NCBI GenBank assembly: GCA_965235115.1 | Contig: OZ249436.1 | Span: 29,204,001 to 29,268,000, forward strand | Source of the DNA: Laetmonice hystrix | Taxonomy: Eukaryota | Reading direction: 5' to 3' | Length of the DNA stretch: 64,000 bases | Shown: piece after piece, positions 427 to 49,111 of the stretch | How positions within the stretch are numbered: the stretch's first letter is position 1 | Layout: every line of letters starts with the position of its first letter | Translations under genes and position numbers: made by a program | The notes under the pieces: model-generated | Seen by the model: the letters and a program-made list of their open reading frames with translations, nothing else | The model's database searches: none | What the model was told of the DNA's origin: nothing

Positions 427-675
427 ATCATGTACAGTATGCAATCCACGCCACTCTTCAGTTCCATACCTGTCTCCCAGCATGTCCTGAGCAGTATGCA
501 GAAGGACAGAAAGACATGTGACGTTTGTGGCAAACAATTCCAGTGCCCGGCCGAACTTAAAAGGCACCTGCTTGTACACACTGGAGAAAGACCCTTTTTG
601 TGTGGCATATGTGGAAAGGCCTTTAATAGGAAATACACTTTAAAAATCCACAAGAATACACATATTAATCATTAA
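427..675 (+). CDS. ZF exon 1: terminal exon, C2H2 pair
   Basis: gtctgtttgcag|ATC; CDVCGKQFQCPAELKRHLLVH-TGERPF-LCGICGKAFNRKYTLKIHKNTH; TAA. Confidence 0.85.
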   Translation: MMYSMQSTPLFSSIPVSQHVLSSMQKDRKTCDVCGKQFQCPAELKRHLLVHTGERPFLCGICGKAFNRKYTLKIHKNTHINH

Positions 676-901
676 TATAAGCATGCGGCATACTGTTTGT
701 AGATTTAAAACCGACTTGTAGTTTGACAAATTCGTGGTTACTGTGAAAACCTGTGGCTTTTGATGTGTAAGACAGTCAGTTATTGTGCCCGTGAACTAGT
801 GTTGGACTTGAGGCAGAATTACTGGAAGCGAAGATTGTGGAACACAAAACACACCAAGTTCAGACTCCTTATCAGGCTTGTTTTGTTTTTCATGTTTCCA
901 G

Positions 902-1126
902 GAAGGATTTTTGCCGTGCGGCTTGCTCATAGCCTCCTCTAAAGATCAGACAATGAAGAGGCCAGATTTGGTCTGCCAGTACTGTGGTAAAGATTTCCTT
1001 GGACCTGCTCACTTGAGAAGACACATGCTGATCCACACAGGAGAGAAACCATTCTCATGTGAAATTTGTGGCAAAAGTTTCAATCGGAAGGGAAACATGG
1101 TGCAACACCGCCAAATCCATAAATGA
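902..1126 (+). CDS. ZF exon 2: terminal exon, C2H2 pair
   Basis: catgtttccag|[42 protein letters not shown] at 1135. Confidence 0.85.
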   Translation, partial: EGFLPCGLLIASSKDQTMKRPDLVCQYCGKDFLGPAHLRRHMLIHTGEKPFSCEICGKSFNRKGNMVQHRQIHK

Positions 1127-1231
1127 CTTTTAAGAATAAAGTCGGGGGTAAAGGTTTACCTCAAAGACACTGGCGATGTCTTTTGAAATTTAAACTAAAA
1201 ATCCTGACAAGATCTTTTTTTCTGCTTGCAG

Positions 1232-1444
1232 AAAAATTATTCACAACTCATAAGAGGAACTGCGAACTTCATGAGGCAAGATTTGATTTGCCAGTACTGT
1301 GGGAAGGCAAATTTTTATAATGCGAGCGACTTGAGAAGACACTTGCGTATTCATACTGGAGAGAAACCATTCTCCTGTGAAATTTGTGGAAAAAGTTTCA
1401 ATCGAAAGGGAAACATGTTACAACACCGCCAGATCCATAAATGA
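1232..1444 (+). CDS. ZF exon 3: terminal exon, chimeric C2H2 pair (finger 1 like exon 4, finger 2 like exon 2)
   Basis: tttttctgcttgcag|[39 protein letters not shown]. Confidence 0.85.
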
Positions 1445-1545
1445 GCAGAATGAAGTCAGGAGTAAAGGTTTTTCTAAAAGACACTGGGGATGTCTTTTGA
1501 AAATGAAAGTGAAAATCCTGACCAGATTTTTTTTTCTGCTTGCAG

Positions 1546-1776
1546 AAAAAATATTTACATCCCGTAGGAGGAACTTCGAACTTCATGAGGCAAGATTTGG
1601 TTTGCCAGTGCTGTGGGAAGGCAAATTTTTATAATGCAAGCGACTTGAGAAGACACATGCGTATTCATACTGGAGAAAAACCCTTTTGCTGTCATATATG
1701 TGGAAAGAATTTTAATCTCAAGTCGAACTTGAAACGACATTGCCAACTGCACAAGAACCCGATGGACTCCATTTAA
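1546..1776 (+). CDS. ZF exon 4: terminal exon, C2H2 pair
   Basis: tttttctgcttgcag|[33 protein letters not shown]. Confidence 0.85.
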
Positions 1777-1840
1777 TTTGAATTATTTTGGCAGCAAAAG
1801 ATGAACTGAAATCTTACAAAGTGTTCAACTCTGCTTGCAG

Positions 1841-2113
1841 ATATACTCCTGGCAACCCAAGCCCAGGCAGACCAAGGATACGAGCTCAGCCCAGAAATTA
1901 GATGGTACATTGTTACAAAGGCAGGAAGACAAAAACTGTTCTTTTTGTTTCAGGCCTTTCCCAAATCGCAAAGATCTAATGCGTCATATCTTGACTCACA
2001 CTGGAGAGAAACCTTACCAGTGCGATATTTGTGGTAGGGATTTTAATCGTAAAGGGAACATGCAGCAACACAGGCAGAGACATTTGAATGAGTTTATTGA
2101 TAATCCAAAGTAA
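1841..2113 (+). CDS. ZF exon 5: terminal exon, C2H2 pair
   Basis: ctctgcttgcag|ATA; CSFC..NRKDLMRH-TGEKPY-CDIC..RKGNMQQH; no Met before finger 1. Confidence 0.85.
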   Translation: MYSWQPKPRQTKDTSSAQKLDGTLLQRQEDKNCSFCFRPFPNRKDLMRHILTHTGEKPYQCDICGRDFNRKGNMQQHRQRHLNEFIDNPK

Positions 2114-2485
2114 AGTATAGCCGTGTCAGGTTTGCATAGGACTTGAGCAAAGATTCTTAATATGGTAATACGGTAATGAAAAAACAGTATGTTTTGTTGC
2201 ATACTGTTCTATTTAAAAACTAATTAACATAGAAGATTCAAAGAAGTTATACTTATGACGCTGCGAGTATACCAACTAGTACTTATTACATGTGCCAGAC
2301 TTTGAAGCATCAATTTCAAGCCTGAAGAATAGTTTGTGCCACTTGAAACTGTGTTTTGGTAACATTTTATAGTGATCTGATTGTTGCCACCCCAAGGTCA
2401 AGTGAAAATAAAGTGTACCCAAAAATGTTTTGCTTCTCTTCATTAGATTTAACTTCTGACCAAGTGTTTTCCACTTTGTTTACAG

Positions 2486-2737
2486 ATTCACCCCTTCCTA
2501 CAAATAATGCCTGGAAACTTAAGTTCCCGTCAGTGTGCTGTTGATACAACAAGAAAGCCAAAAGATGGCGCTACATGTGTTTTATGTGGAAAAGTCTTTC
2601 AAAGTGCTAAAGACCTGGGGCGACATGTTCGAATTCACACAGGAGAAAAGCCTTACAGATGTGATGTTTGTGGGCGTGCATTTGCAACCAAAGGGAACAT
2701 GGTTGTTCACAAAAAGCGGCACTTTCAGGAGATATAA
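2486..2737 (+). CDS. ZF exon 6: terminal exon, C2H2 pair
   Basis: ccactttgtttacag|ATT in frame with ORF 2507-2737; [30 protein letters not shown]. Confidence 0.85.
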
Positions 2738-3004
2738 ATAGTTAAATAATTATCTGTGAAAATGACAGAAGAAACCATTTCGGAGAACAGTTTCTGTTTT
2801 ACCTCTTGATTTTATTAGAACCGAATGTTTTTGTTAATTTCGTAGGCAGCCTTTATGACTTGCCTTTTAATGCATGTAGTTCTGTTTTGTGAAGAATAGT
2901 CGGGACATTTGGCTTCGTTGTACTTGATTATCTGGAAATAAAGAAAGTCAAATACAGCAGAAAGAAGCAACTACCAGTAAACTAGGCTTTCTTTTTATTT
3001 GCAG

Positions 3005-3238
3005 ACGCCATGTCTGTTATATTCGTCACCAGCACTGCTCGTTCCGTCTCGTCCCCGAACAGGACCATGCGAGATCTGTGGGAAAAGCTTCACCAAACCC
3101 AGTGACCTACAGAGACACTTTCGAACCCACACAGGGGAAAAACCCTTTTTTTGCGATTTTTGTGGCAAGAACTTTAGTCTAAAATCAAACATGGTAAAAC
3201 ACATGAGAACCCATAGAAATCATTACTCACGGAAGTAA
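3005..3238 (+). CDS. ZF exon 7: terminal exon, C2H2 pair
   Basis: ctttttatttgcag|[33 protein letters not shown]. Confidence 0.85.
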
Positions 3239-3406
3239 ATGCATTTGGGTTTTTTTTACACACTGAAGGACGGGCAAAAGCAGTGACTGTCAGTAGTTTA
3301 CTGTGCCAATGTTTCCTCAAAAATGGCTGCAGCACGGAGTGGGAAGAAATACCTAAGTTCCAGATGTAAGATGTATGCTGCCATTAAATCTGCAATAAAG
3401 ATCTGA

Positions 3407-3652
<246 letters not shown>

Positions 3653-3685
3653 AAGTTGAGCACATTAACAGACAGGTGTTTCTGA

Positions 3686-3916
<231 letters not shown>

Positions 3917-5014
3917 GAAGTTGAGCACGTTAAACACTACACTTGTAATTTGTAGCGAAATTTATTATGTAAGGGCCTATACATAGATAGGCCACACCAA
4001 GTGGGGGACTAGAAGGTTAAAAACGCTCAATATTGAAAATAAAATTTAAAATGATTGATACGAATGCCTTTTTAATGGATAAAAAAATCGAAACTAGATT
4101 CATACGATTTTTGATGATGGCTTTAACATCAAAGGTAAAATATGAAATGTTCTAATTATCTTCATCCAAGATAATGTATTTTTTATAGCTGGATGATTGG
4201 TTATTGTCTGCCAACTCTCCTGCAGAATTATACGCATGTATAAATTATACATAGACATGTATCTTCATAAAGTTATACATGCGTATTACAGATGTATAAT
4301 TTTATAAGGATACATGTTGAGCTTAAATCATAAATTTGTCTTGAAGAAATTTTATGGTATGAAGTGACAAGCCGGTTGAGGTGCCTTTTATAATGGAAAT
4401 GACACAAAAAAAAGAACAGCTTCCCATTGGTCAATAAACTTAGTCAGTGGTTGGGCGTAGAAGGGACATATGGCTAATATGCCCGACAGTTGGGCATTAT
4501 GCCCGACAGTTGGGCGTATAGCCACTCCATCATCCAATACATGTCTACATGAATCTGTTAAAAAGCAGCGCAATATTTCAATACGTACCATGCTGTGAAA
4601 TAACCGTATCGAATGCTATAAGAGCGAAAGGGGCAAGTGTTCTGCAGTACTTTTAGGAAGATAGTGCTGCTTTGCCTTGTACATTAAGTTTTTGGATAAA
4701 AATATATCATCATTTAGGGATTAGGTGTTTCTGATTTCTTTTCATAAATCTGTTTGGTGGGGGAAAGAGTAGTAGCTGTATGCACGTGTGGCTTTAATCC
4801 AGTGTTACATGTTTTTAATCCTATTGCAACATATTTTGTTTGAAGCCAGACTGTAGATGTATCTTATTAAGAACATTTCAAATGCAAGTTCTTCTGGAAG
4901 GCCCTGCATTCCATTTTTAATGGGCTATGGAAATGCTGCAACTAGTTGAATGAAAGCTTGAGGAAATTTAACAGCAGCTACCATTGAACAGGTGCTCTTT
5001 TCTTCCATTTGCAG

Positions 5015-5227
5015 ATGGTATACCAATTGCAAACCTCAGCAATGGAAGCTCCTGGTCAGCCGAAAAGGCAGTGTCAGATATGTGGCAAAGGTTTCATCAG
5101 AGCTGCTGATCTCAGGAGACATATTCTTATACACACGGGGGAGAAGCCTTTTCATTGCGACATTTGTGGGAGAAAATTCAACAGAAAGTCAACAATGACA
5201 TGTCATATAAAAACTCACACAAAATGA
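5015..5227 (+). CDS. ZF exon 10: terminal exon, C2H2 pair
   Basis: tcttccatttgcag|[33 protein letters not shown]. Confidence 0.85.
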
Positions 5228-5426
5228 GTTAATATGGGCCTGCCTCATTTTTAGCGATGGTAGTAGAATAGGTCAGGCATTTCGATGATCATCAGATTAC
5301 TGCATGAGGGAAAACAAGTCTCGGATTGTTAGAACAGATGGTCAAGGAATATAAGTCCCGAGGTACCATAGGTGATGGACAGAGCTCTGGTTTTGATCAA
5401 GCCTGAATTTTTTTTTTCATTTTCAG

Positions 5427-5654
5427 ATGGCATTTCAATCGCAATATGAGCTAATGGCATCCCCAGGACAGTCAAAGTACGGATGCCACATGTGTGGGAA
5501 AATATTTACAAGGACTGGTCACCTGAAGAGACATTTCCTAATTCACACGGGAGAGAAGCCTTTTGATTGTTCCATTTGTGGTAAAAGGTTCAACCAGAAG
5601 GCTATTTTGACAAAGCATCTCAAAACTCATTCTAAACAAGCTCTTGATTCATAA
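5427..5654 (+). CDS. ZF exon 11: terminal exon, C2H2 pair
   Basis: tttttcattttcag|[33 protein letters not shown]. Confidence 0.85.
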   Translation: MAFQSQYELMASPGQSKYGCHMCGKIFTRTGHLKRHFLIHTGEKPFDCSICGKRFNQKAILTKHLKTHSKQALDS

Positions 5655-5714
5655 ACAAGGGATATGAAGAGTGTGAGGAAATTAAAAAGTTGCTGGTTTT
5701 TTGATCTGCAATAG

Positions 5715-6026
<312 letters not shown>

Positions 6027-6646
6027 GTGTATTGGTACTTGAATCGGAAATGAGTATTCACAACCTCGACTCGAAGGCCCAGAAAAAACTTTTTTGGAGT
6101 ATAAATGAAGAGACACAGAGACGGAGTGGTTTAAATACATCCGTACAGCAGACCATCTCAGAATTTCAGTAAATTAGAGTATAGGGGCCGTCTACTAAAA
6201 TATGAGATAACTTTAGTAGAAATCTTTGCTAAACAAACATTTATATTAAATTCCTACTGGTATTCGGCCAATGAGGCTTTTAGTGAGCAGATCATAGGGA
6301 CAAACTGATAGGAGGGAAGCCGATTTCATTGTTCGAAAAAGCGCACAACAGTGTGCGGTGTCACTTTCCCAGGCAGGGTTTCCTGGAGATTTTGGGTTGG
6401 GGGGGGGGGGTCTCCAAGAAAAAGGGCCTGCAGGAAACCCTCAGGAATCTAGCCGTTGGTTGGAATGGAAGAAAAAATTAAACGTTGGTTGCAAAGGAAG
6501 AAAACAGTTAGGAAAGTAAGGAAATTTTGCCTGTCACTTGGAAGAAAGAATGCTGCCATCATATTGCAAAATATATCCTCCCCTCTGATTTTCTGAAATA
6601 GTCCGAAGGGTCGCAAAATATAGCTGCTGTTTTCTTTCATTTGCAG

Positions 6647-6889
6647 ATGGCATACCAGGTGCAGCCATCAGAAATGGAAGCCTCCTCTTGTCAGCGAAAA
6701 GTGCAGTGTCAGATATGTTGCAAAAAGTTCACACAACCGTATAGCCTAAAGCGACATTTGCTAGTCCATACTGGTGAAAAACCCTTCTTTTGTAATATTT
6801 GTGGCAGGAGTTTCAATCAGAAGTCGATTTTGAAAACGCACTTGAAAGTGCACATGAAATGGGATATGAGGGAGAATACTGTGACGTGA
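6647..6889 (+). CDS. ZF exon 13: terminal exon, C2H2 pair
   Basis: ttctttcatttgcag|[33 protein letters not shown]. Confidence 0.85.
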   Translation: MAYQVQPSEMEASSCQRKVQCQICCKKFTQPYSLKRHLLVHTGEKPFFCNICGRSFNQKSILKTHLKVHMKWDMRENTVT

Positions 6890-7011
6890 TGAGTGAAGGG
6901 CAACCATGTCTGCGAAACCGGAAGCTCTAGGGAGCATTGCATCTTCCCTACATTACTACTAAGCAGTGCAATGGTGGATGCCTCTAAAAAAAGACCTACT
7001 TTCAATTTCAG

Positions 7012-7236
7012 ATGGCATTTATGTTAAATTCCTCATGGAATTCGGTCATCGAGGCTTCTAGTGAGCAGAAAAAACACCGGTGCAAGATATGTGGCAAAGT
7101 CTTTACAAAATTACATAGCTTGAAGAGACATACACGCACACACACCGGAGAAAAACCCTTTCACTGCAACATTTGTGGCAGAAATTTTAACCAGAAGTCA
7201 ACATTGAAGACACATAGCAAAACCCATAATTCATGA
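7012..7236 (+). CDS. ZF exon 14: terminal exon, C2H2 pair
   Basis: ctttcaatttcag|[33 protein letters not shown]. Confidence 0.85.
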   Translation: MAFMLNSSWNSVIEASSEQKKHRCKICGKVFTKLHSLKRHTRTHTGEKPFHCNICGRNFNQKSTLKTHSKTHNS

Positions 7237-7968
7237 GCGATGGTTCCTGGTCTCGTCGTTTTGTGGGCCCTTTCCATCTGGTACCATCCATTGATTTAAA
7301 CGACAGTGGTTGTTTTTTTTTTACTCGCATTTAACCTAGAAAAGGAAGGCGAGTTATTTATTTTAGTGATAGATGGCAGGCCCATGTTGAGGTTTCACAT
7401 GAGGGTTATTTTTAGTTCTTAGGTTTATTTGAAAGGTAAAACAAATGATCATATACATGTAACGGTACTCGACTTTGAATGGGATGGCGAGGTATTCTCA
7501 ACTGTAAGGCATCATGCATGATCTAGAACTGTTGGTCCTGCACTGATCGATCTCTGGCTTTGAGGATCAATACAGAATTCCTCGGAATGACAAGTGAAAG
7601 TTCACATTTCTACGCTTTTAGTGTGAAGCTTTGAGGATACATATCGTTATCCCTGACATAATCTTAAGAAGTCTGATTAAAAATCTGTTGGTTTAGATTG
7701 ATGGAAGTTAGGCAATACGATTGTATATGTGAACGTTTTGGTCTTCAAGATCAAGGTTACTGACATGTAAACCGTTGTGTAAATAAAGACGGCGTTTCAA
7801 TAACAATGAATGGATATGACTTGGAGTGAGATTATGTATGTAGGCAGATGTATGCTCACTTGATTTTTAAGTTTTCTTTTAGCCGTGTAACATACCTGCC
7901 TGTCTAAAGGGTTAAACGGAGGTGTTTTGGAAAGATATCTCTTGACACAAGATTTTCTGTATTTGCAG

Positions 7969-8295
7969 GTGGTAGGTCTTGGAAATAGACAGCCAGAAAA
8001 CTTAGAAAGTGATCTGTTTGAAGCAGAGTTGGGATCAAGCTCACAGGCCGGACATGTTTGCCAGATATGTGGGAAATCTTTCACTGGAGCATGGGCCATC
8101 AACCGACACATGCGCTCCCATACCGGAGAGAAACCTTTCAAATGCGAAGTGTGCAATAAACGTTTTGCTGAAAAGGGAAACTTGAAGCAGCACATCAAAA
8201 TCCATCTGAAACTTGATCGAATGGAGTCACAGGTTCCTCCAATCGGAACGTCCGAGGTCATTTCATTTCCGGTTCAGAAATACCCTCGGATGTAA
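7969..8295 (+). CDS. ZF exon 15: terminal exon, C2H2 pair
   Basis: ttttctgtatttgcag|[33 protein letters not shown]; no Met before finger 1. Confidence 0.85.
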   Translation: MVGLGNRQPENLESDLFEAELGSSSQAGHVCQICGKSFTGAWAINRHMRSHTGEKPFKCEVCNKRFAEKGNLKQHIKIHLKLDRMESQVPPIGTSEVISFPVQKYPRM

Positions 8296-8619
8296 GACAG
8301 GCCCAAAGCCCTGCCAAGTAGTTCCAGCAGATTGCGGAAACTTATAAATCTGACGCAAATTTAGTGCATTTTGGTTTATCCGTTAGTATTGAAGTGGGAT
8401 TTTGACACAAATTTCAGTCTTCTACTTGTGCAGTGAAGGCCTACATTTTGAACACTCATCTGTCACACGTCCTCCACTAAACATCAGTGTGAAAGAGTTC
8501 ACCATCTAAGATTCATATAACGTGCGGAAACTACTGGTAATGCTCAATCTTTAATCAACATTTACAATGGCTTGAGGGAAATAATTACTTCAGACGACAT
8601 CTAAAATGAAAAGCCGCTG

Positions 8620-9450
8620 ATGGCATCCAATGTTTTTAGACCTGCTTGAAAAGAGTTGAGGGAGGTAATGGCTCTAATATTGGGTGATAGAGAGTTCCCC
8701 TCAGTGACTCCTTGGTAAAACACATATGCCAGAATTAATTTTCTTTTGTTACACCTTAAACATAATACCAGTGCCCTGGTTAGTTTGTAGATCGCGATGA
8801 TCTGTCAGGCTTGTATCCTCTATACCACAACATAAAGTTTCAGAGATGTTATATGAACCTGAAGGCAAACATTCTGTAACCTTTTAATTTTGTTTAGTAG
8901 ATCTCTTGATCGATTGATGAAGCCTATGTCCCCAGAGTTCAAGTATGGAACAGTGGTGGTTGTTGTAAATATACCGGTAGTTGTGATTCGCTGATGTACG
9001 GTGGAGGTGAGCCTGGGAACTTATTTGATGACAATATGGCAGTATCGTCCTCAAGAAGGTGCCAGATTCCTTCGCTGCATTTTAGCTATTGTATCAATGC
9101 TTGACCTAATCGGTATGAAGCCACCTTGATTGCACGCTTTTAGAACATCTTATTGCCTTGTAGAAATTGCAGAATATGATGGACTATTTCTTTCTAACCG
9201 TTCACCTGGTAATGGAAGAAGAAATACTGGTCTTAAATTGCTGACAGACTTGTCTCCATCTTTCTGTAATGGGACTACCACAGACATTTTTTAATTTGGA
9301 AACTTCCCACTATTGAGAGATAGATTGAAGAGGGTCGTTTAGTTTATAAGTAAGTGATATGAAGGCATCATTTAATATTCTACCAGATAGATTGTTTATA
9401 ACGGATGAGTTACTTATATGGATGGCTTCACACACATCCATCACCTCGTT
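8620..9450 (-). mobile_element. Degenerate, internally deleted LINE (CR1/L2-type ORF2 reverse transcriptase remnant)
   Basis: Minus-strand translation near 9180-9340 gives FNLSLNSGKFP..KMSVVVPLQKDGDKSVSNLRPVFLLPLPGERLER (typical pre-RT motif of these LINEs); near 8630-8700 gives NSL..IRAITSLNSFQAGLK (ORF2 C-terminal motif); stops and frameshifts. Confidence 0.7.
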
Positions 9451-10649
9451 TCCACCTTGTGAGATACACCATCTCATGTCGCTGACACTATATTAGACAT
9501 GTATGCCCATACCGACCGCCTGCTGTCAACACAACTGCCATACCATCAGACGGACCCCCTGCTGTTATATTAGTTATTCATCAGTCACATATCCTAAGTT
9601 ACGAGTGTCCATAGGACCATCAGCTGGAATTAATTTAGACCATACACACCAAATAAACAAGTGTCCTTCCGGACTACCTGCTGTATCACTAGGGTTCTTA
9701 TCCGTACAGTTGTTGATACCTTTTACTACTTGTTCGAGTTACGGTTTATGGGGAGAAAGATAGATGGATTCTGTATCGGTATGACATTATGTCTGTGCAT
9801 TCAAAAAAAGGATTTACTACTTAGTTGTCAGGTGAGAGGTGATAAATAAGATTAGCCCTTGAAAATGTAGAGAGAGAAACCATAGAGAGAAGCCCTCTAA
9901 AACAATTGAACTGTTCAACTGACAGTGTGCCTTTCTGAATGGATCTGAGCCCAAATTTATTGAGTAAAACTTGTGTTATGTGTCGAATTATAAATCATGC
10001 AACACACTTTACTGGCCCATGGCCATTCCGATACTTCTTTAGATTTTAAAGTAGTGCATTGCACTATAAGTTATCATGCCCTTTGATAATTGCCCAATTT
10101 TTCTTCACCATATCAGAACATGAGGTCTGATACAATAATTTTACCAAATAATGGGATAATCCCAAAGAAATGCATCGTAGGAATATAGGAGTAAATTAAC
10201 CTAGATTTTAATTATTTCGAATCCAGAGTGACCTACTATCTTCGATATAACTGAAGTGTTTGGACCACGTGCATCGATGTAAACGTTGCCAAAGATAACC
10301 ATACCATATTGATGATGACTTGTTACAAAAAAAGGTTGCAGTTGTTCTGATTGTTAACTTGAGGGTCACATTCCACTGTTGTAATAGAGCGAAATAAAAA
10401 CAGAACTTTGAACCATTTCTTGGTTACTAATTTAATTACACAATTTTCCTCACTTAGACAGCCAAATGGGGAGCCTTTCAGTGTATTTAGCATTTGTGTT
10501 GTGTAGGGATAAAAAGATCAAAGAGAAAAGCTGATCTATTAAGGCCTACGTATATACAGCGAAAACGGAGGTTTTAAGTAGGAAATCGCCCTCTGTCACC
10601 AAAGCGACATGAAGTTAGAAATAGGACAAAGTGGACATTGTTACTTTGC

Positions 10650-10700
10650 ACTCTGCGGTCACACATGAGAGAAACCCTTTAGGCGAATGTCGTGTGCCAG
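10650..10700 (+). pseudogene. Decayed ZF cassette fragment
   Basis: ggt cac aca TGA gag aaa ccc ttt = GHT*EKPF, matching RGHTGEKPF of neighbouring exons 16/17 with a stop at the Gly codon. Confidence 0.5.
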
Positions 10701-10751
10701 ACAAAAAGGATTGCCAAGTAAAAGTGATGGAAATTCTATGCTTGCTTCCAG

Positions 10752-11006
10752 GTTACGCTTAGTCAAGTCCTACAAAATCTTCATGCACAGCCTCAGATTC
10801 TACCCAAGCACATTGCATCTGAAGGAAACAAAACATTTTCCTGTCAATTTTGTGGAAAAGCATTTAGGGCGCCATCCTGGCTGGCAATACATATGCGTGG
10901 TCACACAGGGGAAAAACCATTTGCATGTGATATCTGTGGGAAATGCTTTGCAGAAAAAGGGAACATGAAGAAACATCGGAACCTGCATAATAAGTATAAC
11001 ACTTGA
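10752..11006 (+). CDS. ZF exon 16: terminal exon, C2H2 pair (finger frame not in ORF track)
   Basis: tgcttgcttccag|[87 protein letters not shown]. Confidence 0.85.
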
Positions 11007-11152
11007 GTCAAAATACACCATGAAAACGCTGGTCCACAAGATGAACATTGACTGTGGTAAATGTGATAGTGGCCCCTATATCACCAGCTCATCTTTGGCC
11101 AGGGAGGACAGCATATGACCTGTACAATGATATTGAAAAGTAGGAAAAGAAA

Positions 11153-11230
11153 TCGCTTACTTGCAAGTTTGAGATAAAAAACATTCCCAACTGCTGCAAA
11201 ACTGAAGATCGACATCAAGGAACTATTTAG
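11153..11230 (+). pseudogene. Decayed ZF finger remnant
   Basis: SLTCKFEIKTFPTAAKLKIDIK resembles the ..C..CGK.FPTPSKL..H fingers of the array with ligands lost. Confidence 0.4.
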
Positions 11231-11488
11231 CAGGGTTGTATGCCCACTGAGCTCTACTACCAAGGATAGTAATTGTCGCACAGAAGGAATGGTCATAAAA
11301 GAACCAAACAAGTGATGGCTCTTCGAGTGGATTCTGTGAGAATCTGATGAAATTTTAGTGTTGCAAACTCTTAGAGAATAGAAACAGGGTACATTGTCCC
11401 TTTGCCGACTGCAAAGTGTGCAAGGCAAAAAGTTTCCATGAGTAGGATTGCCAAGTAAAAGTGATGGAAATTTTATGTTTGCTTCCAG

Positions 11489-11731
11489 GTTTGCCATAGT
11501 GAGGTCCTACAAAATCTCCATGCACAGCCTCAGGTTCTACGCTCTGCACGTGACCGAGACAGAACATATCCCTGTCAGTTTTGTGGGAAAGTATTTAGGG
11601 CACCATCTTTGTTGGCTCCACACGTACGTGGTCACACAGGGGAAAAACCGTTTACATGTGATGGCTGTGGGAAATGCTTTGCAGAAAAAGGAAACATGAA
11701 GAAGCATCGCCGATTGCATTGTGTAAAATAA
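11489..11731 (+). CDS. ZF exon 17: terminal exon, C2H2 pair (finger frame not in ORF track; paralog of exon 16)
   Basis: tgtttgcttccag|[83 protein letters not shown]; stop overlaps AATAAA. Confidence 0.85.
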
Positions 11732-12240
11732 ATAAAATAACTGACTTAGTATTGGCTCTCAGAAAATACTTTATTTTGTAAAAGTTTAAAGTTATGTAGA
11801 AATGGACAGAGAGGGCATAATGGACAAAGTTGGCATTGCCACTTTGCAGTGTGTATGTATTTGGAGAAATAATTGCACAGTTTCATAATTAAAGAGCTTA
11901 GTGCTATTGGAACCTTTTAGTTTTAAGGTGCCGTGCACAAAGTGATCAATAACCATTATTCTGAAAACCTTCCGTTCAACACAGTACGAAGACATTGTGG
12001 TCATATTGTGGCAGTCTGTGGACTGTAAACAATGTTTTCCAAAGGAAAGGTTTGGATGCGCCAGAATACCTGTTCAATGTATACCGGTAGTCGGTTTTAT
12101 TATAGGGGTTCATAGGTGCCAAAGCCAAAATGTACCAGTATTATGATGCGCCCAACTGAATATCTTGCCGAATGGAACCATCACTCTAGTGAGAGGGGCA
12201 TGCAGAACTTAATTTGACCCAAAATGTTCTGTATTTGCAG

Positions 12241-12510
12241 GTTGTATGTCTCCCAAATATATTGCCATTGCCTACAAGTGGACAAGCAAGAAACTTTGAG
12301 AGTGATATGGTTGCATCAGAATTTGGACCAAGAGCAAGTGGAAGAAACAGTGAATGTGAAATATGTGGGAAATCCTTCCGATCATCATGGGATGTAAACC
12401 GGCACATGCGCATTCACACAGGAGAAAAACCATACAAATGTGATATCTGTCTAATGGCATTTTCAACCAAGGGGAATATGTTGTCACACAAAAGGAATCG
12501 GCATAAATAG
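12241..12510 (+). CDS. ZF exon 18: terminal exon, C2H2 pair
   Basis: gttctgtatttgcag|[33 protein letters not shown]. Confidence 0.85.
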
Positions 12511-12806
12511 TTGGCTCCAAAAGCACGAGTCTTCAGTCACTTAGAGGACGTATACATTGGTCTGAGAAAAATGATGTTTCTGCAGTCTGTATATCTGCAC
12601 CCTGTCCAGTTTTCAGTTGCAAGTCACACCACTTGAGATTTTATTAGGATTAGGAGGAAATCGGAACAAAGTCTAGTCTGTGTTAAAAAGACAGCCTTTA
12701 GTTGAGGATATCCATTCGTCATCCAGTGCCCTCGCTATAATTAACAATCTGTGCTTAATGAGTTCTGCAGACGTTATACTTGACACGGAATTTTCTGTAT
12801 TTGCAG

Positions 12807-13079
12807 GTGGTAGGTCTCCAGTATATATTATCGAGTGGGCACGCAGGGAACCTTGAAAATGATGATCTGGTTGCAACTGAATTCAGATCCAGAGGACCAG
12901 CAAGATGTATAGAATGCGAAATATGTGGGAAATCCTTACGGGCAGCATGGGATTTGAATAGGCACATGCGTATTCACACAGGGGAAAAGCCTTTCAAATG
13001 TGAAGTCTGTGGGAAAGGATTTGCTGAAAAAGGAAATATGAAGACGCATCGCAAAGTTCATGAAAAATTAGATCAATAG
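12807..13079 (+). CDS. ZF exon 19: terminal exon, C2H2 pair
   Basis: ttttctgtatttgcag|[33 protein letters not shown]. Confidence 0.85.
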   Translation: MVGLQYILSSGHAGNLENDDLVATEFRSRGPARCIECEICGKSLRAAWDLNRHMRIHTGEKPFKCEVCGKGFAEKGNMKTHRKVHEKLDQ

Positions 13080-13264
13080 TAGTCAGTGGAATCAGATCCA
13101 TCTTAGTGTATTTAGATGAAAGACCAAAAAGGAGAATTTTGTATGGCTGTACAGAAGATCCTCTGAAGCAAAACTTGCCTGAAGTGATGGAGAAAGCCCC
13201 AACAACTTGCAACATTAAAAAAGGGAAGCATCCGAATGATTCTCGGTTTTATGCTTACTTCCAG

Positions 13265-13534
13265 ATGTTGAACATTCTGCCTGTGCTTCACTCGCCGCCC
13301 AAGATAAGGAAGGGCACGGCAAACAAAGGAGAAAGAGGATATTCATGTTACATTTGTGAGAAAATATTTAGGGCTCCATCAGGGTTGGTTCGCCATATGC
13401 GCTGCCACACAGGAGAAAAACCATATGAATGTGACGTGTGTGGGAAACAGTTTGGTGAAAAGGGGAACATGAAGCAGCACCTCAGAGTCCATGATAAACG
13501 CGAGAGATTCTTTCCTGTGGGCTGTACCGACTGA
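13265..13534 (+). CDS. ZF exon 20: terminal exon, C2H2 pair
   Basis: tgcttacttccag|ATG; CYIC..APSGLVRH-TGEKPY-CDVC..EKGNMKQH. Confidence 0.85.
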   Translation: MLNILPVLHSPPKIRKGTANKGERGYSCYICEKIFRAPSGLVRHMRCHTGEKPYECDVCGKQFGEKGNMKQHLRVHDKRERFFPVGCTD

Positions 13535-13783
13535 ACTAACAAGTCACAAACTTCCCGTGTCAGTAATAGCTACAGATGGTTTATTGTTGATCCTAGGTGA
13601 TGTAGAGAAAAAGGATTGCAGTACAAAGGTTCATTTGGTTTTCATGAGTTTAATTGTGCAGTTGATACCTGTAGACCCGAAAAGAAATCCCTCTGACAAG
13701 GTATGGGTCGAAAATGGCTACAGCAGGGAATTTTACATCTAAAGGCAATTTGTTAGATTCAGACTTTTGTACTGTTCTTCCAG

Positions 13784-14032
13784 ATTGCTCAAAGTCTGCC
13801 CCTGCAGTACCTTCATGAAGCATCACACCAGTTAATGAAGAGCACTTCAACCCGGGGAAACAGACGATATCCGTGTTCCATCTGTGGGAAAGCATTTAGG
13901 GCTCCATCTCTATTGGCACCGCATTTCAGAACGCACACAGGAGAAAAACCCTTTGAGTGTGACCTCTGCGGAAAAGGGTTTGCCAAAAAAGAAAACATGA
14001 CAAAACATAGGAAAATACATGAGAGAATTTAG
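13784..14032 (+). CDS. ZF exon 21: terminal exon, C2H2 pair
   Basis: tactgttcttccag|ATT in frame with ORF 13835-14032; [30 protein letters not shown]. Confidence 0.85.
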
Positions 14033-14678
14033 AAACTGTGATGACATCCAGCTGGTTCACAGAACTCAAACTGACTCTATTGTTGTATGTTTTATCAACT
14101 AGAAAAGCCATCAGTGTGATGGAATCCTGATGGAGCCCTATAACTGTATGTCTTGGTCTGATGGCTTCTGGCAGTCGGGAGTTCAGTCCCTTTGCATAGA
14201 TTAGCATGCTTCATTAACCCACTATTAGGTCTGTAAAGTTGATCTGGATTCCCAGGTAAATAAAATTATATTCATATAACAAACCTTTTTATCCTGTTTT
14301 TACCATAGGTGACTGTCTTGGGCTGTTTAATGGATTTTTAGGGTGAAAAAATATAATTTGTTTATGGGATGGGTAAGATCATATACGATACACAATATTA
14401 TATGGAAGAGGTCGTGGAAAAGGCCTTGATTTTAATTAATGAAGTCGCCATAAAGGTTTCTCATACTGGATATTGATATGCACTGCCAAGTGTGCAATAT
14501 TGGAGAGGCATTTACGCGTGATCTTGTCCCTTGTCGCCTCTAAAACATCTGAACAGGCTCGCTGTGCATTAATATCTGCCCGTCTTGTAGGAAGGACGGC
14601 ACATAGTGTAAGTGGAACCGATTTGATACGCACGAAATTGCTTTCATGGCCTCATGGGTACTTGTGCTGTACTTGCAG

Positions 14679-16822: not shown

Positions 16823-16988
16823 CTCTATCAATCAAACAAACACCTTGCAGGATCAATATTTTTGTGCAGAGCCATCTGGAAAGACGGGAACATATCGTAC
16901 CAAGCGAGAACTAAAAGAAGCAATTGACTACCTTGCATAGCTATAAAGAAATGAGTTGTGCTATATAGGCTATCTCCTCTGCTTCCAG

Positions 16989-19871: not shown

Positions 19872-19930
19872 GAGTAGAAAAGATTTTTAATTATCCCAAG
19901 GTTTCATAGTAGATATTCTACTGTTTTCAG

Positions 19931-37668: not shown

Positions 37669-37971
37669 ATTGTTTATTGGCCCTCAGCAGTGGAGCCACC
37701 CGAACATGAGATTGATAAACAGGCCCAAAGGTGGCCGAAAATGGCTTCGGGACGTCATGGACCTAAAACGTGTTCCATGTGTGGCAGAACGTTCCGATTT
37801 CAGTGGATGCTACGGAGGCACTACTCGACACACACGGGCGAGAAAGGCTTTGTGTGCCCTGAATGTGGCATGGCATTTAATCGAAGCGATAGGCTGAAAC
37901 TGCACTACAAAGCTAAGCATCCAACAAAAGCCAGGGCCGAGGAGGCTACACTGAACAAGTCGGATCTTTAG
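37669..37971 (+). CDS. ZF exon 44: terminal exon, C2H2 pair
   Basis: attgttcttgcag|ATT; CSMC..FQWMLRRH-TGEKGF-CPEC..RSDRLKLH. Confidence 0.85.
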   Translation: MVYWPSAVEPPEHEIDKQAQRWPKMASGRHGPKTCSMCGRTFRFQWMLRRHYSTHTGEKGFVCPECGMAFNRSDRLKLHYKAKHPTKARAEEATLNKSDL

Positions 37972-38734: not shown

Positions 38735-39040
38735 ATGGATGTCTACAACCCGGGTGTCATGGCGGCCGCCCCTCGAACTCCCCTCGCAGGCCACCAGCGG
38801 TCGGCGCCATTGGCTACCACTGGCTCACTTACAAACAAACAGTGTACGCTGTGTGGCAAGGTCTTTCGGGATTCTTACCTGCTTAAAAGACACTTCAGAA
38901 GTCACACTGGGGAACGGCCTTTTAAATGTCCCAAGTGCGATAAAGGTTTTGTCCGCAAAGATAACATGCAGTCTCACCTACTGCTTCATGGAATCACCGA
39001 GTCCGGAGTGACTTCGATGTTCTCACAAGACACTGATTAA
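38735..39040 (+). CDS. ZF exon 45: terminal exon, C2H2 pair
   Basis: ggtttacttgcag|ATG; CTLC..DSYLLKRH-TGERPF-CPKC..RKDNMQSH. Confidence 0.85.
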   Translation: MDVYNPGVMAAAPRTPLAGHQRSAPLATTGSLTNKQCTLCGKVFRDSYLLKRHFRSHTGERPFKCPKCDKGFVRKDNMQSHLLLHGITESGVTSMFSQDTD

Positions 39041-39169: not shown

Positions 39170-39436
39170 ATGCCTGTGTGGGATCAGAACCCTGGCCCCT
39201 CCTCAGTGGGCCGTGCTGGCGGCCGATCGGCTCGGATAAAGGAGTATAAAACGCGATTTACGTGCTCAGTGTGTGGGATCAGTTTTCGCGATTCTTACTG
39301 CCTTGAGCGACACGTGCGGTGCCACACGGGGGAGAGACCGTTTGGCTGTTCAGAGTGTGAAAAGACATACAAACGATCAGACCATTTGATTGCTCATATG
39401 GCCAGGATCCATGGCAAAACTAAATCTGCTCGGTGA
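39170..39436 (+). CDS. ZF exon 46: terminal exon, C2H2 pair
   Basis: ctgtgttcttccag|ATG; CSVC..DSYCLERH-TGERPF-CSEC..RSDHLIAH. Confidence 0.85.
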   Translation: MPVWDQNPGPSSVGRAGGRSARIKEYKTRFTCSVCGISFRDSYCLERHVRCHTGERPFGCSECEKTYKRSDHLIAHMARIHGKTKSAR

Positions 39437-40353: not shown

Positions 40354-40641
40354 ATCCCCGCATGGGATAACGATGCTATCCCTGCAGCTGTGGGGAGGTC
40401 CACTCACGCGCTTGGCCAGAGAGTTTGGGCAGGTTCATCGAAACCTCAGTTCTTTTGCACTGTCTGTGGAAAGTCGTTCCGAGATAGTTATCATCTAACG
40501 AGACACATGAGGAAACACACAGGGGAGAGGCCGTACGTCTGCTCGCTGTGTAAAAGAACCTTTACCAGGAAGGAATACCTAGCATCTCATGTATCGGGAG
40601 TGCATTCGGTTCCCACTGGTCCCTCGTCGAACATAAAGTGA
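40354..40641 (+). CDS. ZF exon 47: terminal exon, C2H2 pair
   Basis: ctgtgttcttccag|ATC; CTVC..DSYHLTRH-TGERPY-CSLC..RKEYLASH. Confidence 0.85.
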   Translation: MPAWDNDAIPAAVGRSTHALGQRVWAGSSKPQFFCTVCGKSFRDSYHLTRHMRKHTGERPYVCSLCKRTFTRKEYLASHVSGVHSVPTGPSSNIK

Positions 40642-45003: not shown

Positions 45004-45267
45004 GGGGCGCTTCAAATGCGACGTCGGTACTTCGGCTCGGCGCCAGGTGACAGCCGGAAGGAATGCCATACATGCCAGATCTGCGGGCGGTTGATGGCAG
45101 ACAGGGCCAAACTGAAGCGCCACCTGTTAACACACACAGGAGACAAACCGTACATCTGTCCAAGGTGTGGCCGCGGGTTTTCGCAAAAGTGCAACATGGA
45201 ACGTCACCACCAACGAATGTTGTGCACGGACCCTGATCCGAAGACTTCCGCGAGCGACATCCCTTAG
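45004..45267 (+). CDS. ZF exon 48: terminal exon, C2H2 + C2HC-like finger
   Basis: tttttgttttcag|GGG; CQIC..DRAKLKRH-TGDKPY-CPRC..QKCNMERHHQRMLC. Confidence 0.85.
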   Translation, partial: GALQMRRRYFGSAPGDSRKECHTCQICGRLMADRAKLKRHLLTHTGDKPYICPRCGRGFSQKCNMERHHQRMLCTDPDPKTSASDIP

Positions 45268-45334
45268 AGTTAGAATATAGGCATTACAATCGGTCTTCTG
45301 GACATGACTGATGGCTGCATCTTTGTACTTTCAG

Positions 45335-45592
45335 ATGGTCACACCACTTGGCCAGACGGACAACACCTTTGAGCAGCCTCGAACTGGCAGTAGTATGGGG
45401 CGAGCTCCGGGTCATACTGGATTCACATGTACGACGTGTGGTCAGAAGTTTGCCTATCTGTCGTACTTGAAAAGACACATAGTGCAACATACCGGAGAAA
45501 AACCATTCGTGTGCCATGTGTGTTCCCAGGGTTTCACCCGAAAATCTACTCTGGCGAAGCACATGAAATTTCACTATACGCCCACTCCTTAA
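45335..45592 (+). CDS. ZF exon 49: terminal exon, C2H2 pair
   Basis: ctttgtactttcag|[33 protein letters not shown]. Confidence 0.85.
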   Translation: MVTPLGQTDNTFEQPRTGSSMGRAPGHTGFTCTTCGQKFAYLSYLKRHIVQHTGEKPFVCHVCSQGFTRKSTLAKHMKFHYTPTP

Positions 45593-45805
45593 ATTAATGA
45601 CGGCGAAGTTACCATAAAACTAGCTGTTTCAATGATCTGCCACCCGACGCGGCGTATAGAACACATGTTGGAGGGAACCAACAACTTTTTTGACCCGTTT
45701 TCACTCAGAGGGCTGTTAACAAGGAGCAAACGTGATGCCGTCTCGACTCTACCATGTGACCAACTTTGAACCGTCGCTTACTGTCATGGCCGTTTGTGTT
45801 TGCAG

Positions 45806-46027
45806 GGGACGGACCAGCTGCGAACGACCACCAGCAGTGACAGAGGTGATACGTCAAAGAAAGGATCTCAGTGTAAGATCTGTGGTCGCATAATTGTCAC
45901 TAAACTGAAGCGCCACCTGCTAACACACACTGGAGACAAACCGTACACCTGCCAAATGTGTGGCCGGGGGTTTTCGCAAAAATGTAACATGGACCGACAC
46001 CAGCAACTGTGTGGACGTCGTCAGTGA
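45806..46027 (+). CDS. ZF exon 50: terminal exon, shortened C2H2 + C2HC finger
   Basis: gtttgtgtttgcag|GGG; CKICGRIIVTKLKRHLLTH-TGDKPY-CQMC..QKCNMDRHQQLC. Confidence 0.8.
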   Translation, partial: GTDQLRTTTSSDRGDTSKKGSQCKICGRIIVTKLKRHLLTHTGDKPYTCQMCGRGFSQKCNMDRHQQLCGRRQ

Positions 46028-46514
46028 GTGACTGGTGGATCTTTGTGTCTTTGACGACCACAGGAGTACGGCTTCTTCAGGCTCGTTTATGAAACTAGAA
46101 AGTGCCCTACACTTTCAGAGGATTTGTGATGTCGTTTGCTTTCGTTGACTGCGGGCTTTACTAATTGTTTTACTCACGCTCGGAGGTCAGGGGCTGAGGT
46201 ATTGTCAAGGGTTTCAAACTATATATCTGTCAAACCAAACAAGGTTAATTCTATTGTTAGCACTGGCATGTCAATAATACATATTTCAAATTAATACATC
46301 TGTTCTGATTCTCGACGAAAGTTTCTTAAAAATATGTAGATCTAGGTCGTAATTGTGAAGAAGTTGAGGTCAGACTCGGTGTGTGCAGAGAACGGCCACT
46401 TACTGGCACACGTGAACTACAACAACTATCGAGTGACGTGTTTTATCTGTCGTCCTGGATCTTCATCAGTATGTACGTGACCAGGCATACAATCTACGTC
46501 TCTCAATCCCCACC

Positions 46515-46839
46515 AGGCACGTAGCTTCCATTAGGCAATGTAGGCACGTGCCTACACATTTCCCCCCAGAAATGAAAAGATATAAATAAAAATATAAAAC
46601 AAACAATAAGATGAGATGGCGGTTATTATGTCTAGGGTATGTGTAAAATTAAATTTAAAGTAGATTCTATAGCGTACCGGAATTTCCTTTTCCTAAACGC
46701 GAGTTCCTTACTCCGAACGCTGGCGTTTTTATTGAGCCTCAAAGTCCTACCTGGATTGACAGTCATGTGCCAACACAGACTGCCCCAGAGCCCCATGTAA
46801 AAAGTGCCGACACATTTATTTCAGCCAAGCTACGCCCCT
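46515..46839. mobile_element. Probable MITE
   Basis: Imperfect inverted ends caggcacgtagct / agctacgcccctg; no clear target duplication. Confidence 0.35.
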
Positions 46840-47548
46840 GCCCATTGACAAAGAAAGGAAGACCCTCCTGGCGAGGAGAAACACTTTGAAATTCTGCTGA
46901 TCTTATCTACTTACCATTGTATATGATGTGAAAATAAACGATATTTAAAATAAAATAACATTATGATCGACAGTTGTATACCTGTACTCAGTTCAAACTG
47001 TCCAAAGAATTCAGCATGGGATATTACCCAGGTTACTTTGGATGGGGTCAGTCGCAGTGTCCGTTCAAATGCTCCGATATATTTCAAAAGGCGTACGTTA
47101 CAGCGAGTTGCCGACTTTCTTTTTTCATCACCCCCCTTGGTTTTCTTTAGGGGATGGCAAAACACGTGTCTGTTGGTACGCTCGTCCATTCGTATCCATA
47201 CCATACAAAATGAACAACTCTATAGAGGCTCTGACTCTTCGGCTTCTTTTGTCCAGTAAAGTAGAACACTCCTCCGGCATCCTAGAGATTGCTTTACAAT
47301 TTTTGTTATGGCCGTATTGGTTTTGCTGATAATGGTGCAATTTTCCCTGTCTTGCAGCGTACAGAAGTATTACTCTTTTGCTCATAATATTATGTACGAT
47401 GGTGTCTGCATTTACAGGTAAACCAGCACACACTTTTTATTGGTGTGTGTGTGGGGGGGGGGGGGAGGGGGGATCGGCCCTAGAACTAGATTATCCGGTT
47501 GAACGCTCTGTAACTAAGTGAATAAGTTGCATTCCTTCTCTATTACAG

Positions 47549-47842
47549 ATCTGTGGGAACTTTACCCAAGGTTCTCAGTCGGAACCTGCTGGACTGGGTT
47601 CACAGCATCAGTCAGTTCAAGGGTCAGGAAGAATCGTACACTCAGGAGGCTCACTGATAACCAAGCAGGCGCCGATTGTTTGCAAGGTCTGCAGTAGGGT
47701 CTGTAGGTGTCCCTCACAACTGAAGGTCCATCTCCGCTCTCACACAGGCGACCGTCCTCATGTTTGTCCAATTTGTGGCCGATCGTTCACTCAGATTGGG
47801 AATATGTCGCGTCATCTTAAACAACTGCATCATGCAAATTAA
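47549..47842 (+). CDS. ZF exon 51: terminal exon, C2H2 pair (not in ORF track)
   Basis: ttctctattacag|ATC; ICGNFTQGSQSEPAGLGSQHQSVQGSGRIVHSGGSLITKQAPIVCKVCSRVCRCPSQLKVHLRSHTGDRPHVCPICGRSFTQIGNMSRHLKQLHHAN*. Confidence 0.85.
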   Translation: MCGNFTQGSQSEPAGLGSQHQSVQGSGRIVHSGGSLITKQAPIVCKVCSRVCRCPSQLKVHLRSHTGDRPHVCPICGRSFTQIGNMSRHLKQLHHAN

Positions 47843-48913
47843 TTCATGGATATATTCAAGAGAGGAAAGAAGAAATCGTTTGCTGTGACAGGGCTTTCAA
47901 AATAAGCCGGCGGCCGGATCCGGGCAACCGGCGCAGGTTACTTTAACGGAATCCCTGGCATGCATGGATTGTGATGGCGCCTATACTTTAACCGAATCCC
48001 CGCCTACTCAAAAAACAGTGATCTTATTCGTTCGTTTTTGTACTTAGTTGACAAGTTGTGCTGTACTTTGCCGAATGTGGATGATTAGTATTCGCGGAAT
48101 GTAATACACAGAATCGGACATTATGTACGTGGAGAACCCGCCATTCCTCAATTGCGTTTCTATTAAAACAAGTTAAGCATTAAACTTTGTTGCAGACACC
48201 ACTATAATTGTATGGCGTCGAGTAATTTTACCACTCATGTCTAATGAACTTTGTATATGTTTTTAGATTAGATACAGCGTTAGATATTTACGCCCAGCTA
48301 GTAATATAGATATTGGCCAAGTTCAGTGTGTGCAAACTCCTTGAATTCTCTTCATTCCTTCACTCAGGAGATTTTTCATCATCAGGAGACCTACATTCAC
48401 CGGTGGACATCAGTGTTTCTCAAAGTGGTTATGCCTTCCTTTTATCATGCATTGAATTAAGGGAAAAAAGGTTTGTCTGCGAGGGTGTGTCCTTGGCTTC
48501 TGGCATCACCTAAAGTATTGGGTGAAAGTAGCAGTGGGGGATCCATGACTTTGATAAGGGGGGCACCCAAAATATTTTTAGCTTCGCTACGCCCTACGAT
48601 TGTGCCTGTATTACGCACACAAAATAATTGCTATTAAATGTTTTATTTTATTCAAATACTATATATATATATATTATTCAAATATAGTAACATCTTCATA
48701 AAAAAAGAAAGAAAACCTCAGGGGGACCCTGCCCCCCCCCTGCATGGAGTCCCGGGGAATAGTGATATCAGTTGGGCAGCGTGTATTACCTTCGTGTCAT
48801 CAGGAGGCAGACGATCGATCAAGATGAGCCGTAATTTGATGAGAAGATTTGTTTTTCGGTCTCTTTCAGACCTTCTTGACCGTGAAATATATATCTCGAC
48901 CGTTATCTTGCAG

Positions 48914-49111
48914 CAGCCCGTGGCTGGGAGCTCGCCGAGCGGCCGCTTCGCATGCCCCACGTGCGGTAAGGTGTACTTCTTTCGCTCCAAACTGGAGGCT
49001 CATCTGATCACCCACACCGGCGAACGACCATACATCTGTCCAATCTGCGGCGCTGGCTTCAGTCAGTCTGGCTCCATGCGGCGGCATATCAAGACGACAC
49101 ACACCAAGTGA
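48914..49111 (+). CDS. ZF exon 52: last terminal exon of the array, C2H2 pair
   Basis: cgttatcttgcag|CAG (tandem CAGCAG acceptor); CPTC..FRSKLEAH-TGERPY-CPIC..QSGSMRRH; ATTAAA at 49161. Confidence 0.8.
   Translation, partial: QPVAGSSPSGRFACPTCGKVYFFRSKLEAHLITHTGERPYICPICGAGFSQSGSMRRHIKTTHTK

Follow-up and report, generated by a model that had tools for sequence, protein, structure and literature searches.

The stretch of DNA analysed here (the window) comprises 64,000 nucleotides of Laetmonice hystrix, at G000:C1:29204001-29268000 (contig OZ249436.1) of a 627-Mb assembly, and the 200 kb upstream of it were scanned as well. It carries an array of short cassettes, each encoding a linker, two C2H2 zinc fingers and a stop codon, which an earlier note, made from the letters of the window alone, had described as 52 same-strand cassettes and had read as interchangeable terminal exons of a single gene. 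The cassette array is real, and we put at roughly 85% the probability that the locus is one gene in which a constant exon is spliced to one of 87 alternative last exons.

Cassettes were detected by a six-frame C2H2 scan, by a linker pattern that caught 48 of them, and then by a wider pattern that brought the number in the window to 52. These C2H2 finger pairs lie between 427 and 49111, all on the + strand, and the wider pattern found no finger-pair cassette on the - strand of the window or of the upstream part. The suspicion that the array might extend upstream proved well founded: a further 35 cassettes, one of them truncated at a locus border, occupy 26.9 kb there, and the whole array thus amounts to 87 cassettes over 76 kb of one strand. 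Fingers are limited to the final 27 kb of the 200 kb scanned upstream of the window, with none in the 170 kb upstream of the array. At the other end the array stops at 49111; the remainder of the window (49.1-64 kb) is mostly repeats with no frame of 150 codons. A continuation of the array past 49111 was considered and rejected, the next linker match lying 98 kb farther on among the matches listed. The main features are given below, window cassettes from first exon base to stop and with predicted acceptors unless RNA-like support is noted later; the first two entries were placed from sequence.

C1:29171960-29172865 of G000 (L005:7960-8865), 32.0-31.1 kb before the window, + strand: constant coding exon
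C1:29177096-29203520 (L004, L003, L002), + strand: 35 upstream cassettes
1-426, + strand: spacer before the first window cassette
427-675, 902-1126, 1232-1444, 1546-1776, 1841-2113, 2486-2737, 3005-3238, 3437-3652, 3701-3916, 5015-5227, + strand: window cassettes 1-10
5427-5654, 5790-6026, 6647-6889, 7012-7236, 7969-8295, 10752-11006, 11489-11731, 12241-12510, 12807-13079, 13265-13534, + strand: window cassettes 11-20
13784-14032, 14679-14954, 15357(or 15309)-15599, 15905-16153, 16544-16822, 16989-17240, 17515-17769, 18117-18362, 18688-18933, 19249-19506, + strand: window cassettes 21-30
19623-19871, 19931-20164, 20622-20894, 22666-22995, 24999-25346, 28832-29035, 29278-29529, 30261-30485, 31232-31450, 33412-33630, + strand: window cassettes 31-40
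34099-34353, 34509-34766, 34911-35165, 37669-37971, 38735-39040, 39170-39436, 40354-40641, 45004-45267, 45335-45592, 45806-46027, 47549-47842, 48914-49111, + strand: window cassettes 41-52

Acceptors were scored at every AG 66-330 bases 5′ of the linker, with frame ignored. For the 48 window cassettes caught by the first pattern, the top-scoring acceptor was in phase 0 in 45 (about one-third expected by chance) and the second-best was in phase 0 in the remaining 3; the 4 window cassettes that the pattern had missed have phase-0 acceptors as well. Across the entire array, 82 of 86 scorable cassettes have their best acceptor in phase 0, and the chosen acceptors are preceded by TTNCAG in 84/86, in keeping with the shared blueprint that had been proposed. 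Two fingers followed by a stop are present in every cassette, as claimed, although the spacing is not wholly uniform: it is canonical in 79/86, and the first fingers of 1232 and 1546 are two residues longer and that of 45806 two shorter. The linker before the first Cys measures 12-77 residues, the tail after finger 2 runs 1-48 codons to the stop, and canonical pairs joined by TGE[KR]P occur in 68 of the 87 cassettes. No two recognition-helix pairs are alike (87 different of 87, and 52/52 within the window), whether the seven-residue helices are compared or positions -1, 2, 3 and 6 alone, numbered by the usual C2H2 convention; the variation between cassettes noticed in the window thus extends to the full array.

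The constant exon lies 4.2 kb ahead of the first of the 87 cassettes and contains no fingers. It has a TTTCAG acceptor, an ATG at C1:29172071, 265 codons and a phase-0 donor, TCG/GTAGGT; a non-coding first exon, judged by eye, is probable near L005:5900-6100. The phase-0 acceptors of the cassettes match this donor after codon 265, which supports the one-gene model, and we infer that the constant exon is their splice partner. The earlier note had suggested scanning upstream for a constant exon encoding a BTB/POZ, ZAD or SCAN domain; such a scan yields this exon, but neither a BTB nor a ZAD nor a SCAN domain in it. Its residues 1-55, strongly conserved among homologues, form a box instead.

The locus is not a lone case, being one of about 39 box genes: the box matches 39 places in the genome, 31 of them on C1. 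None of 30 such loci has a finger in the frame of its box (one, on the wrong strand in this comparison, counts for the donors only), and among the 30 box exons, a phase-0 site is the best donor near the end of the frame in 23, shares first place in 3 and is outscored in 4. Arrays behind the other boxes are known from linker coordinates alone: behind three of them, on the same strand as the respective box, come spaced single linkers, numbering 10, 2 and 19 among the first 100 listed of 1806 genome-wide linker matches, and none of the 100 listed shows the 84-bp spacing of poly-finger exons. A profile search with the box returned 1553 representatives at E <= 0.001. Box proteins without a finger make up 225 of the 242 considered, and a donor-like [DEQ][STMQ]V motif lies close to the end in 121/225 of these, as against 17 in a control stretch. 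One homologue cluster comprises 3 read-through forms together with 7 spliced at the same residue to two fingers. The closest homologue is 85% identical; taken together with the best match to SNRNP35 and a sequence resembling the next box gene, it suggests that a related species has a syntenic locus. Just one homologue of the constant exon is named, and its annelid origin fits the hint of a non-insect genome that the earlier note had taken from repeat content.

Several further observations concern other members of the family. Two more box genes lie 59 and 159 kb behind the window, at C1:29327427 (+) and 29426852 (-), facing each other and each followed by spaced linkers; head-to-head pairs also occur at C1:47051895/47055023 and 20789000/20797294. 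In the box gene at L036 (G000:C1:20758653) the frame exceeds 550 codons and the locus offers no good phase-0 donor; a weak HTH_psq match lies 6 kb from it, at C1:20752504. Two homologues, P0172 and P0177, have a tandem double box, and two others, P0222 and P0223, combine box and HTH_psq (PF05225) in one chain, a parallel to insect BTB-Pipsqueak factors.

RNA-like evidence for splicing came from four runs of one study that contain the constant exon. One of them, X4, about one-tenth the size of the others and consisting of contigs of one sample, contains 0.82 of the words of L005:7900-8950, approximately the share of that query taken by the constant exon. It was aligned to window positions 201-20200 only, giving 31 pieces, 8 of them listed. 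Over this interval another run, X1, stays close to a level of about 60 except for spikes at repeats; X4 is patchy, covering 23 of 30 bins, and 46% of aligned X4 continues into foreign sequence. From its size and coverage pattern we take X4 to be RNA; the 7 bins without X4 cover are uninformative on expression. Three of the 8 listed pieces start one base before a predicted acceptor:

2486-2737, + strand: cassette with RNA-like support, an X4 contig matching 2485-2902 with 27 unmatched letters before
7969-8295, + strand: cassette with RNA-like support, X4 match from 7968 with 11 unmatched letters before
19931-20164, + strand: cassette with RNA-like support, X4 match from 19930 with 27 unmatched letters before

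Of the remaining listed pieces, three start within an exon, one starts 11 bases before an acceptor and one in a spacer. At the three acceptors the matches reach the G at -1 and then stop, as predicted by an upstream exon ending in TCG, and these breaks mark splicing there. The check that had been proposed, for spliced junctions converging on one donor, is therefore answered in part: the breaks are present at 2486, 7969 and 19931, but the common donor is deduced rather than read.

One further joint appears in X4 only, at the following cassette.

16544-16822, + strand: cassette whose acceptor is the landing point of the X4-only joint, which runs from 16207 to 16542 and can be shifted by 2 to 16544

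Its donor side falls in the 3′ untranslated stretch of cassette 15905 and is non-canonical in the reference, and the joint may reflect an allele, a deletion haplotype, template switching or an artefact. We discounted another three X4 joints, all with a short side of 20-21 letters and non-canonical ends and two of them shared with X1, attributing them to matching between similar fingers.

The joint at 16544 bears on the possibility that the cassettes are internal exons spliced serially into one poly-zinc-finger protein, as it connects the stretch behind a cassette to the next acceptor. Serial splicing also finds a precedent in KAK2144882.1, a gene model of the annelid Paralvinella palmiformis in which the box exon is followed by three finger blocks in series; that model, however, is a prediction and may be stitched, and the X4 joint begins after a stop, with no GT-AG joint between cassettes among the matches listed. 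Each complete cassette stops within 1-48 codons past finger 2, and strong donors between finger 2 and the stop number only 3 in 85 cassettes, where 4.65 would be expected. The stops and the lack of donors exclude serial splicing, to which we give almost no credence, and they would imply that the cassettes are used mutually exclusively, one pair per protein. A conventional poly-zinc-finger gene (KRAB-, SCAN- or ZAD-ZF, with 84-bp finger spacing) was likewise rejected, given two fingers and then a stop in every cassette and no Pfam domain in the constant exon. The reading as a single gene with alternative terminal exons, by contrast, is upheld by an otherwise orphan phase-0 donor upstream, by the RNA-like breaks at acceptors and by the missing serial donors.

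The equal lengths of the foreign 5′ sequence on two X4 contigs (27 letters and the G) could also have come from a spliced leader, as would be the case if the locus resembled an operon, with tiny two-finger genes in a row that each begin with such a leader or with a first exon of their own. Cassettes open with ATG in 30/86, and an in-frame Met precedes the first Cys in 60/86; a leader ending in ATG, of the kind found in flatworms, would moreover account for phase 0. Against this, 26/86 cassettes have no Met ahead of the fingers, the box exon with its conserved phase-0 donor would be left partnerless, and a homologue does splice the box-exon donor to a finger pair. Equal 28-base overhangs would equally be expected of a 31-letter assembly at a branch point where many exons leave one shared exon, which is how we read them. 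Independent tiny genes are thus a highly improbable explanation.

Several points weigh against the one-gene model itself. The join between cassette and constant exon is a deduction, the unmatched X4 letters at the three acceptors being unread, and the X4 evidence consists of contigs from one sample over the interval given above. Three listed X4 pieces pass an acceptor unspliced (5779-6156, 6666-7316 and 11147-11546); they could represent pre-mRNA, separate array transcripts or 3′ ends formed by read-through. The Met codons just described count here too, and AATAAA or ATTAAA occurs in only 28 of the 51 gaps between cassettes. Among homologues, all 7 spliced forms share one 3′ end, so that alternative ends on one front end have not been directly seen in any species, and some family members have one finger or HTH_psq in chain with the box, from which it follows that not every member need use an array.

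Under the one-gene model the window would be the 3′ portion of the gene. The constant exon, encoding the 55-residue box and a long flexible region, would be joined in phase 0 to one cassette, and each last exon would add a short linker, two C2H2 fingers and the stop. The output would be up to 87 proteins of about 330-415 residues with a common front end, reading different short DNA words; that the fingers bind DNA is presumed from their type. Selection of one cassette per mRNA most likely rests on 3′ splice sites that compete within one long pre-mRNA and are coupled to 3′-end formation. With a poly(A) hexamer in only about half of the gaps, many mRNAs probably carry later cassettes as an untranslated 3′ tail, and the unspliced X4 pieces agree with this.

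The same unspliced pieces would also suit trans-splicing, in part or throughout, of the kind known from mod(mdg4) and lola, with promoters inside the array, separate transcripts for the constant exon and for groups of cassettes, and splicing between those transcripts. Distance speaks for trans-splicing too, as the last acceptor is 80 kb from the donor and faces 86 competitors. The intron behind the donor holds no exact 8-mer complementary to more than 8 of the 86 stretches upstream of cassettes, a same-sense control giving an equal result and weak or degenerate pairing escaping such a test; no motif is enriched upstream of the acceptors beyond A/T runs. The missing pairing motifs do not exclude trans-splicing, as mod(mdg4) needs no complementary sequences (PMC13490949). 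On the other hand, all 87 cassettes lie downstream of the constant exon on the same strand, an arrangement that joining in cis requires and joining in trans does not, and the donors of 29 box exons are followed by no common motif beyond A/T runs. We favour joining in cis, by odds of about 2 to 1, and regard trans-splicing as rather unlikely.

Fingers of this kind raise the question of how a protein with two of them finds its targets, as two fingers read only about 6 or 7 bases; from this we infer that the box may gather several heads, acting as an oligomerisation module that would combine the two-finger heads of isoforms and paralogues, by analogy with the TTK-type BTB of insects. The constant exon matches no Pfam family at E <= 1, and none of the 150 listed of 151 BTB matches falls on C1 at 20.6-31.4 Mb. 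AlphaFold2 predicts for the box a helix at residues 3-23 and strands at 29-40 and 44-55 (mean pLDDT 92-95 over residues 1-50), and the rest of the product is predicted at low confidence. The box gave no match to PDB sequences (best E 1.9, falling outside the box), no structural match by Foldseek at E <= 0.001 and no usable match in the ESM Atlas. With VIA-align the best Z was 4.6 (rmsd 2.6, 58 aligned, a pseudopilin), within the range of chance likeness, as were MADS-box chains at Z 3.0-3.5. These searches do not amount to a demonstration of a new fold. A two-copy complex prediction for residues 1-60, made with the alignment not used, gave a score of 0.02 and a mark of 0.32.

Close cassette pairs have a dN/dS of 0.26 (8 independent pairs); the array is under purifying selection and, apparently, expressed at least in part. 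There is no sign of positive selection on the helix in this small sample, positions -1, 2, 3 and 6 having a dN/dS of 0.32 against 0.24 elsewhere. For 45 of 79 cassettes the nearest relative is no more than three places away, compared with 7% by chance. Recent duplication and recombination are both visible:

3422-3933, + strand: very recent 264-bp tandem duplication of one cassette, 97% matches
1232-1444, + strand: chimeric cassette, with acceptor, linker and finger 1 like 1546, and finger 2 and 3′ flank like 902 (p 3.4e-9)
16989-17240, + strand: chimeric cassette, with 5′ half like 17515 and finger 2 like 16544 (p 7.0e-8; the best-scoring upstream comparison in the triplet test was 15309)
18688-18933, + strand: chimeric cassette, with 5′ half like 19623 and 3′ half like 18117 (p 5.3e-11)

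The duplicates at 3422-3933 already differ at one helix position (QKSNLKN versus QKSTLKN). In 1264 triplet tests, five central cassettes passed Bonferroni correction, namely the three chimeras and two of the parental cassettes, in which the same events reappear from the opposite viewpoint. In each chimera the switch falls in the HTGEKP codons, with finger 1 from the downstream neighbour and finger 2 from the upstream one, and the product has a finger pair absent from either parent; the array therefore forms new finger pairs by recombination. The order of the parents points to unequal crossing-over at the linker, and the array would have grown by local duplication together with such crossing-over, which would bring finger 1 and finger 2 from different cassettes together. 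A tree of 86 cassettes, with 23 of its 83 inner branches starred, has poor resolution and gives a rough view only; in it, cassettes near both array ends (L003:1317-4008 and window 45004-49111) partly group together with weak support, as if the array had grown from the middle.

Such turnover would also be expected if most cassettes were idle by-products of tandem duplication and only a few isoforms mattered. Recent duplicates and chimeras indicate that turnover is fast, a few first fingers are irregular, and the region is rich in locally born repeats. Yet acceptor, frame and fingers are jointly intact in nearly all cassettes next to diverged spacers, the dN/dS of close pairs indicates constraint, and no two helix pairs are alike; we consider idle cassettes improbable as a general explanation. 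As for the repeats themselves, a block of tandem and dispersed repeats lies directly behind the array at 49397-58600, including 10.8 copies of a 258-bp unit (95% matches) at 50274-53047 and units of 372-394 bp and 66 bp. A 468-bp unit occurs three times at 25759-27181, inside one of the array's largest gaps. A short stretch at the end of cassette 7969 (8238-8309) recurs very often in the genome, its bin having an X1 depth of 3433 and many loose ends; the long tail of this cassette may derive from a mobile repeat.

The earlier note had seen in the array a larger system of the design known from Drosophila lola and mod(mdg4). In the papers cited here, lola is described as having 20 protein isoforms, of which 17 carry a C-terminal finger motif of their own (10.1101/132027), formed by cis- and trans-splicing (10.1101/132027; PMC11426971), and mod(mdg4) as having >30 isoforms that join common exons to one of many 3′ variable exons (PMC13490949), by trans-splicing only, with independent promoters and no complementary sequences (PMC13490949). 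Its ends are mostly FLYWCH domains, and the TTK group as a whole combines one protein-interaction front end with C2H2 or Pipsqueak ends in many isoforms (PMC11426971). The layout with alternative ends stands, then: like lola, the locus has a constant N-terminus and one of many 3′ finger exons, although the partner exon here is deduced, and like mod(mdg4) it sets many 3′ variable ends on common exons. The ends number 87 here against 20 in lola, about 39 box genes occur in one genome, and the pairs are TGE[KR]P-linked; the C2H2 pairs, all on one strand, differ from the trans-spliced FLYWCH ends of mod(mdg4). The box proteins P0222 and P0223, with HTH_psq instead of fingers, extend the likeness to the TTK group.

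The front end is where the comparison fails. lola has a BTB domain and the constant exon has none; its domain being neither BTB nor ZAD nor SCAN, the locus is not a larger member of the lola group. The FxLRWN motif of the TTK group (PMC11426971) is absent, F.LRW occurring in 0/242 box proteins and not in the constant exon. The front domain here is 55 residues with a predicted helix and beta hairpin, and hexamer formation, known for the TTK BTB, is for the box a conjecture. Membership in the lola/TTK group of BTB-ZF genes was therefore rejected, on the absent Pfam match, the absent FxLRWN and the 55-residue folded part. According to PMC11426971, TTK-type BTB was not found in annelids or molluscs, and the design is most likely convergent with that of the insect BTB genes.

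Closer relatives may be the Lophotrochozoan Zinc Finger (Lzf) genes, which reportedly have a conserved N-terminal box and tandem, mutually exclusive finger-pair exons in annelids, molluscs, flatworms and their kin. Their tandem one-pair exons, if that account is right, would correspond to the 87 one-pair cassettes here, and all that was observed at this locus agrees with it. A literature search, which left out most subscription papers and so does not imply unpublished status, found no published paper on this gene family; we think it probable that a family of this design has already been published. That this is an undescribed lophotrochozoan system, with about 39 genes sharing an uncatalogued interaction domain, many feeding arrays of two-finger last exons, and with specificities arising by linker crossover, appears doubtful as a whole. 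Whichever holds, novelty may lie in the array size, the crossovers in the linker and the fold predicted for the box.

Farther upstream of the probable first exon lie unrelated genes and transposon-like frames. The upstream neighbours include a single-exon SNRNP35 (L009:6104-6970, - strand), named from its matches, what we take from its translation to be an APC11-like RING exon (L010:6699-7217, + strand) and, presumably on the same grounds, a DENN-domain-like gene (L015). The long frames at L018:321-5786 (-) and L006:1294-7695 (-) seem to us to resemble LTR-retrotransposon gag-pol, and those in L008-L009 are presumably THAP- and Harbinger-like transposon frames.

At loci such as this, transcription-factor counts for annelids and their relatives would be badly wrong, with one gene standing for up to 87 DNA-binding proteins whose ends annotation drops or stitches together; KAK2144882.1 looks stitched in this way. 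The locus would be a clean example of convergence, sharing its design with lola and mod(mdg4) of insects but not their front domain, and it would offer a natural set of two-finger specificities, young duplicates and chimeras included, on one unchanging scaffold. The array could be used to test how new DNA-binding specificities arise and how a cell selects one last exon. If the box does oligomerise across isoforms and paralogues, the animal would have a combinatorial transcription-factor repertoire, overlooked by gene counts, with heads numbering in the hundreds to thousands.

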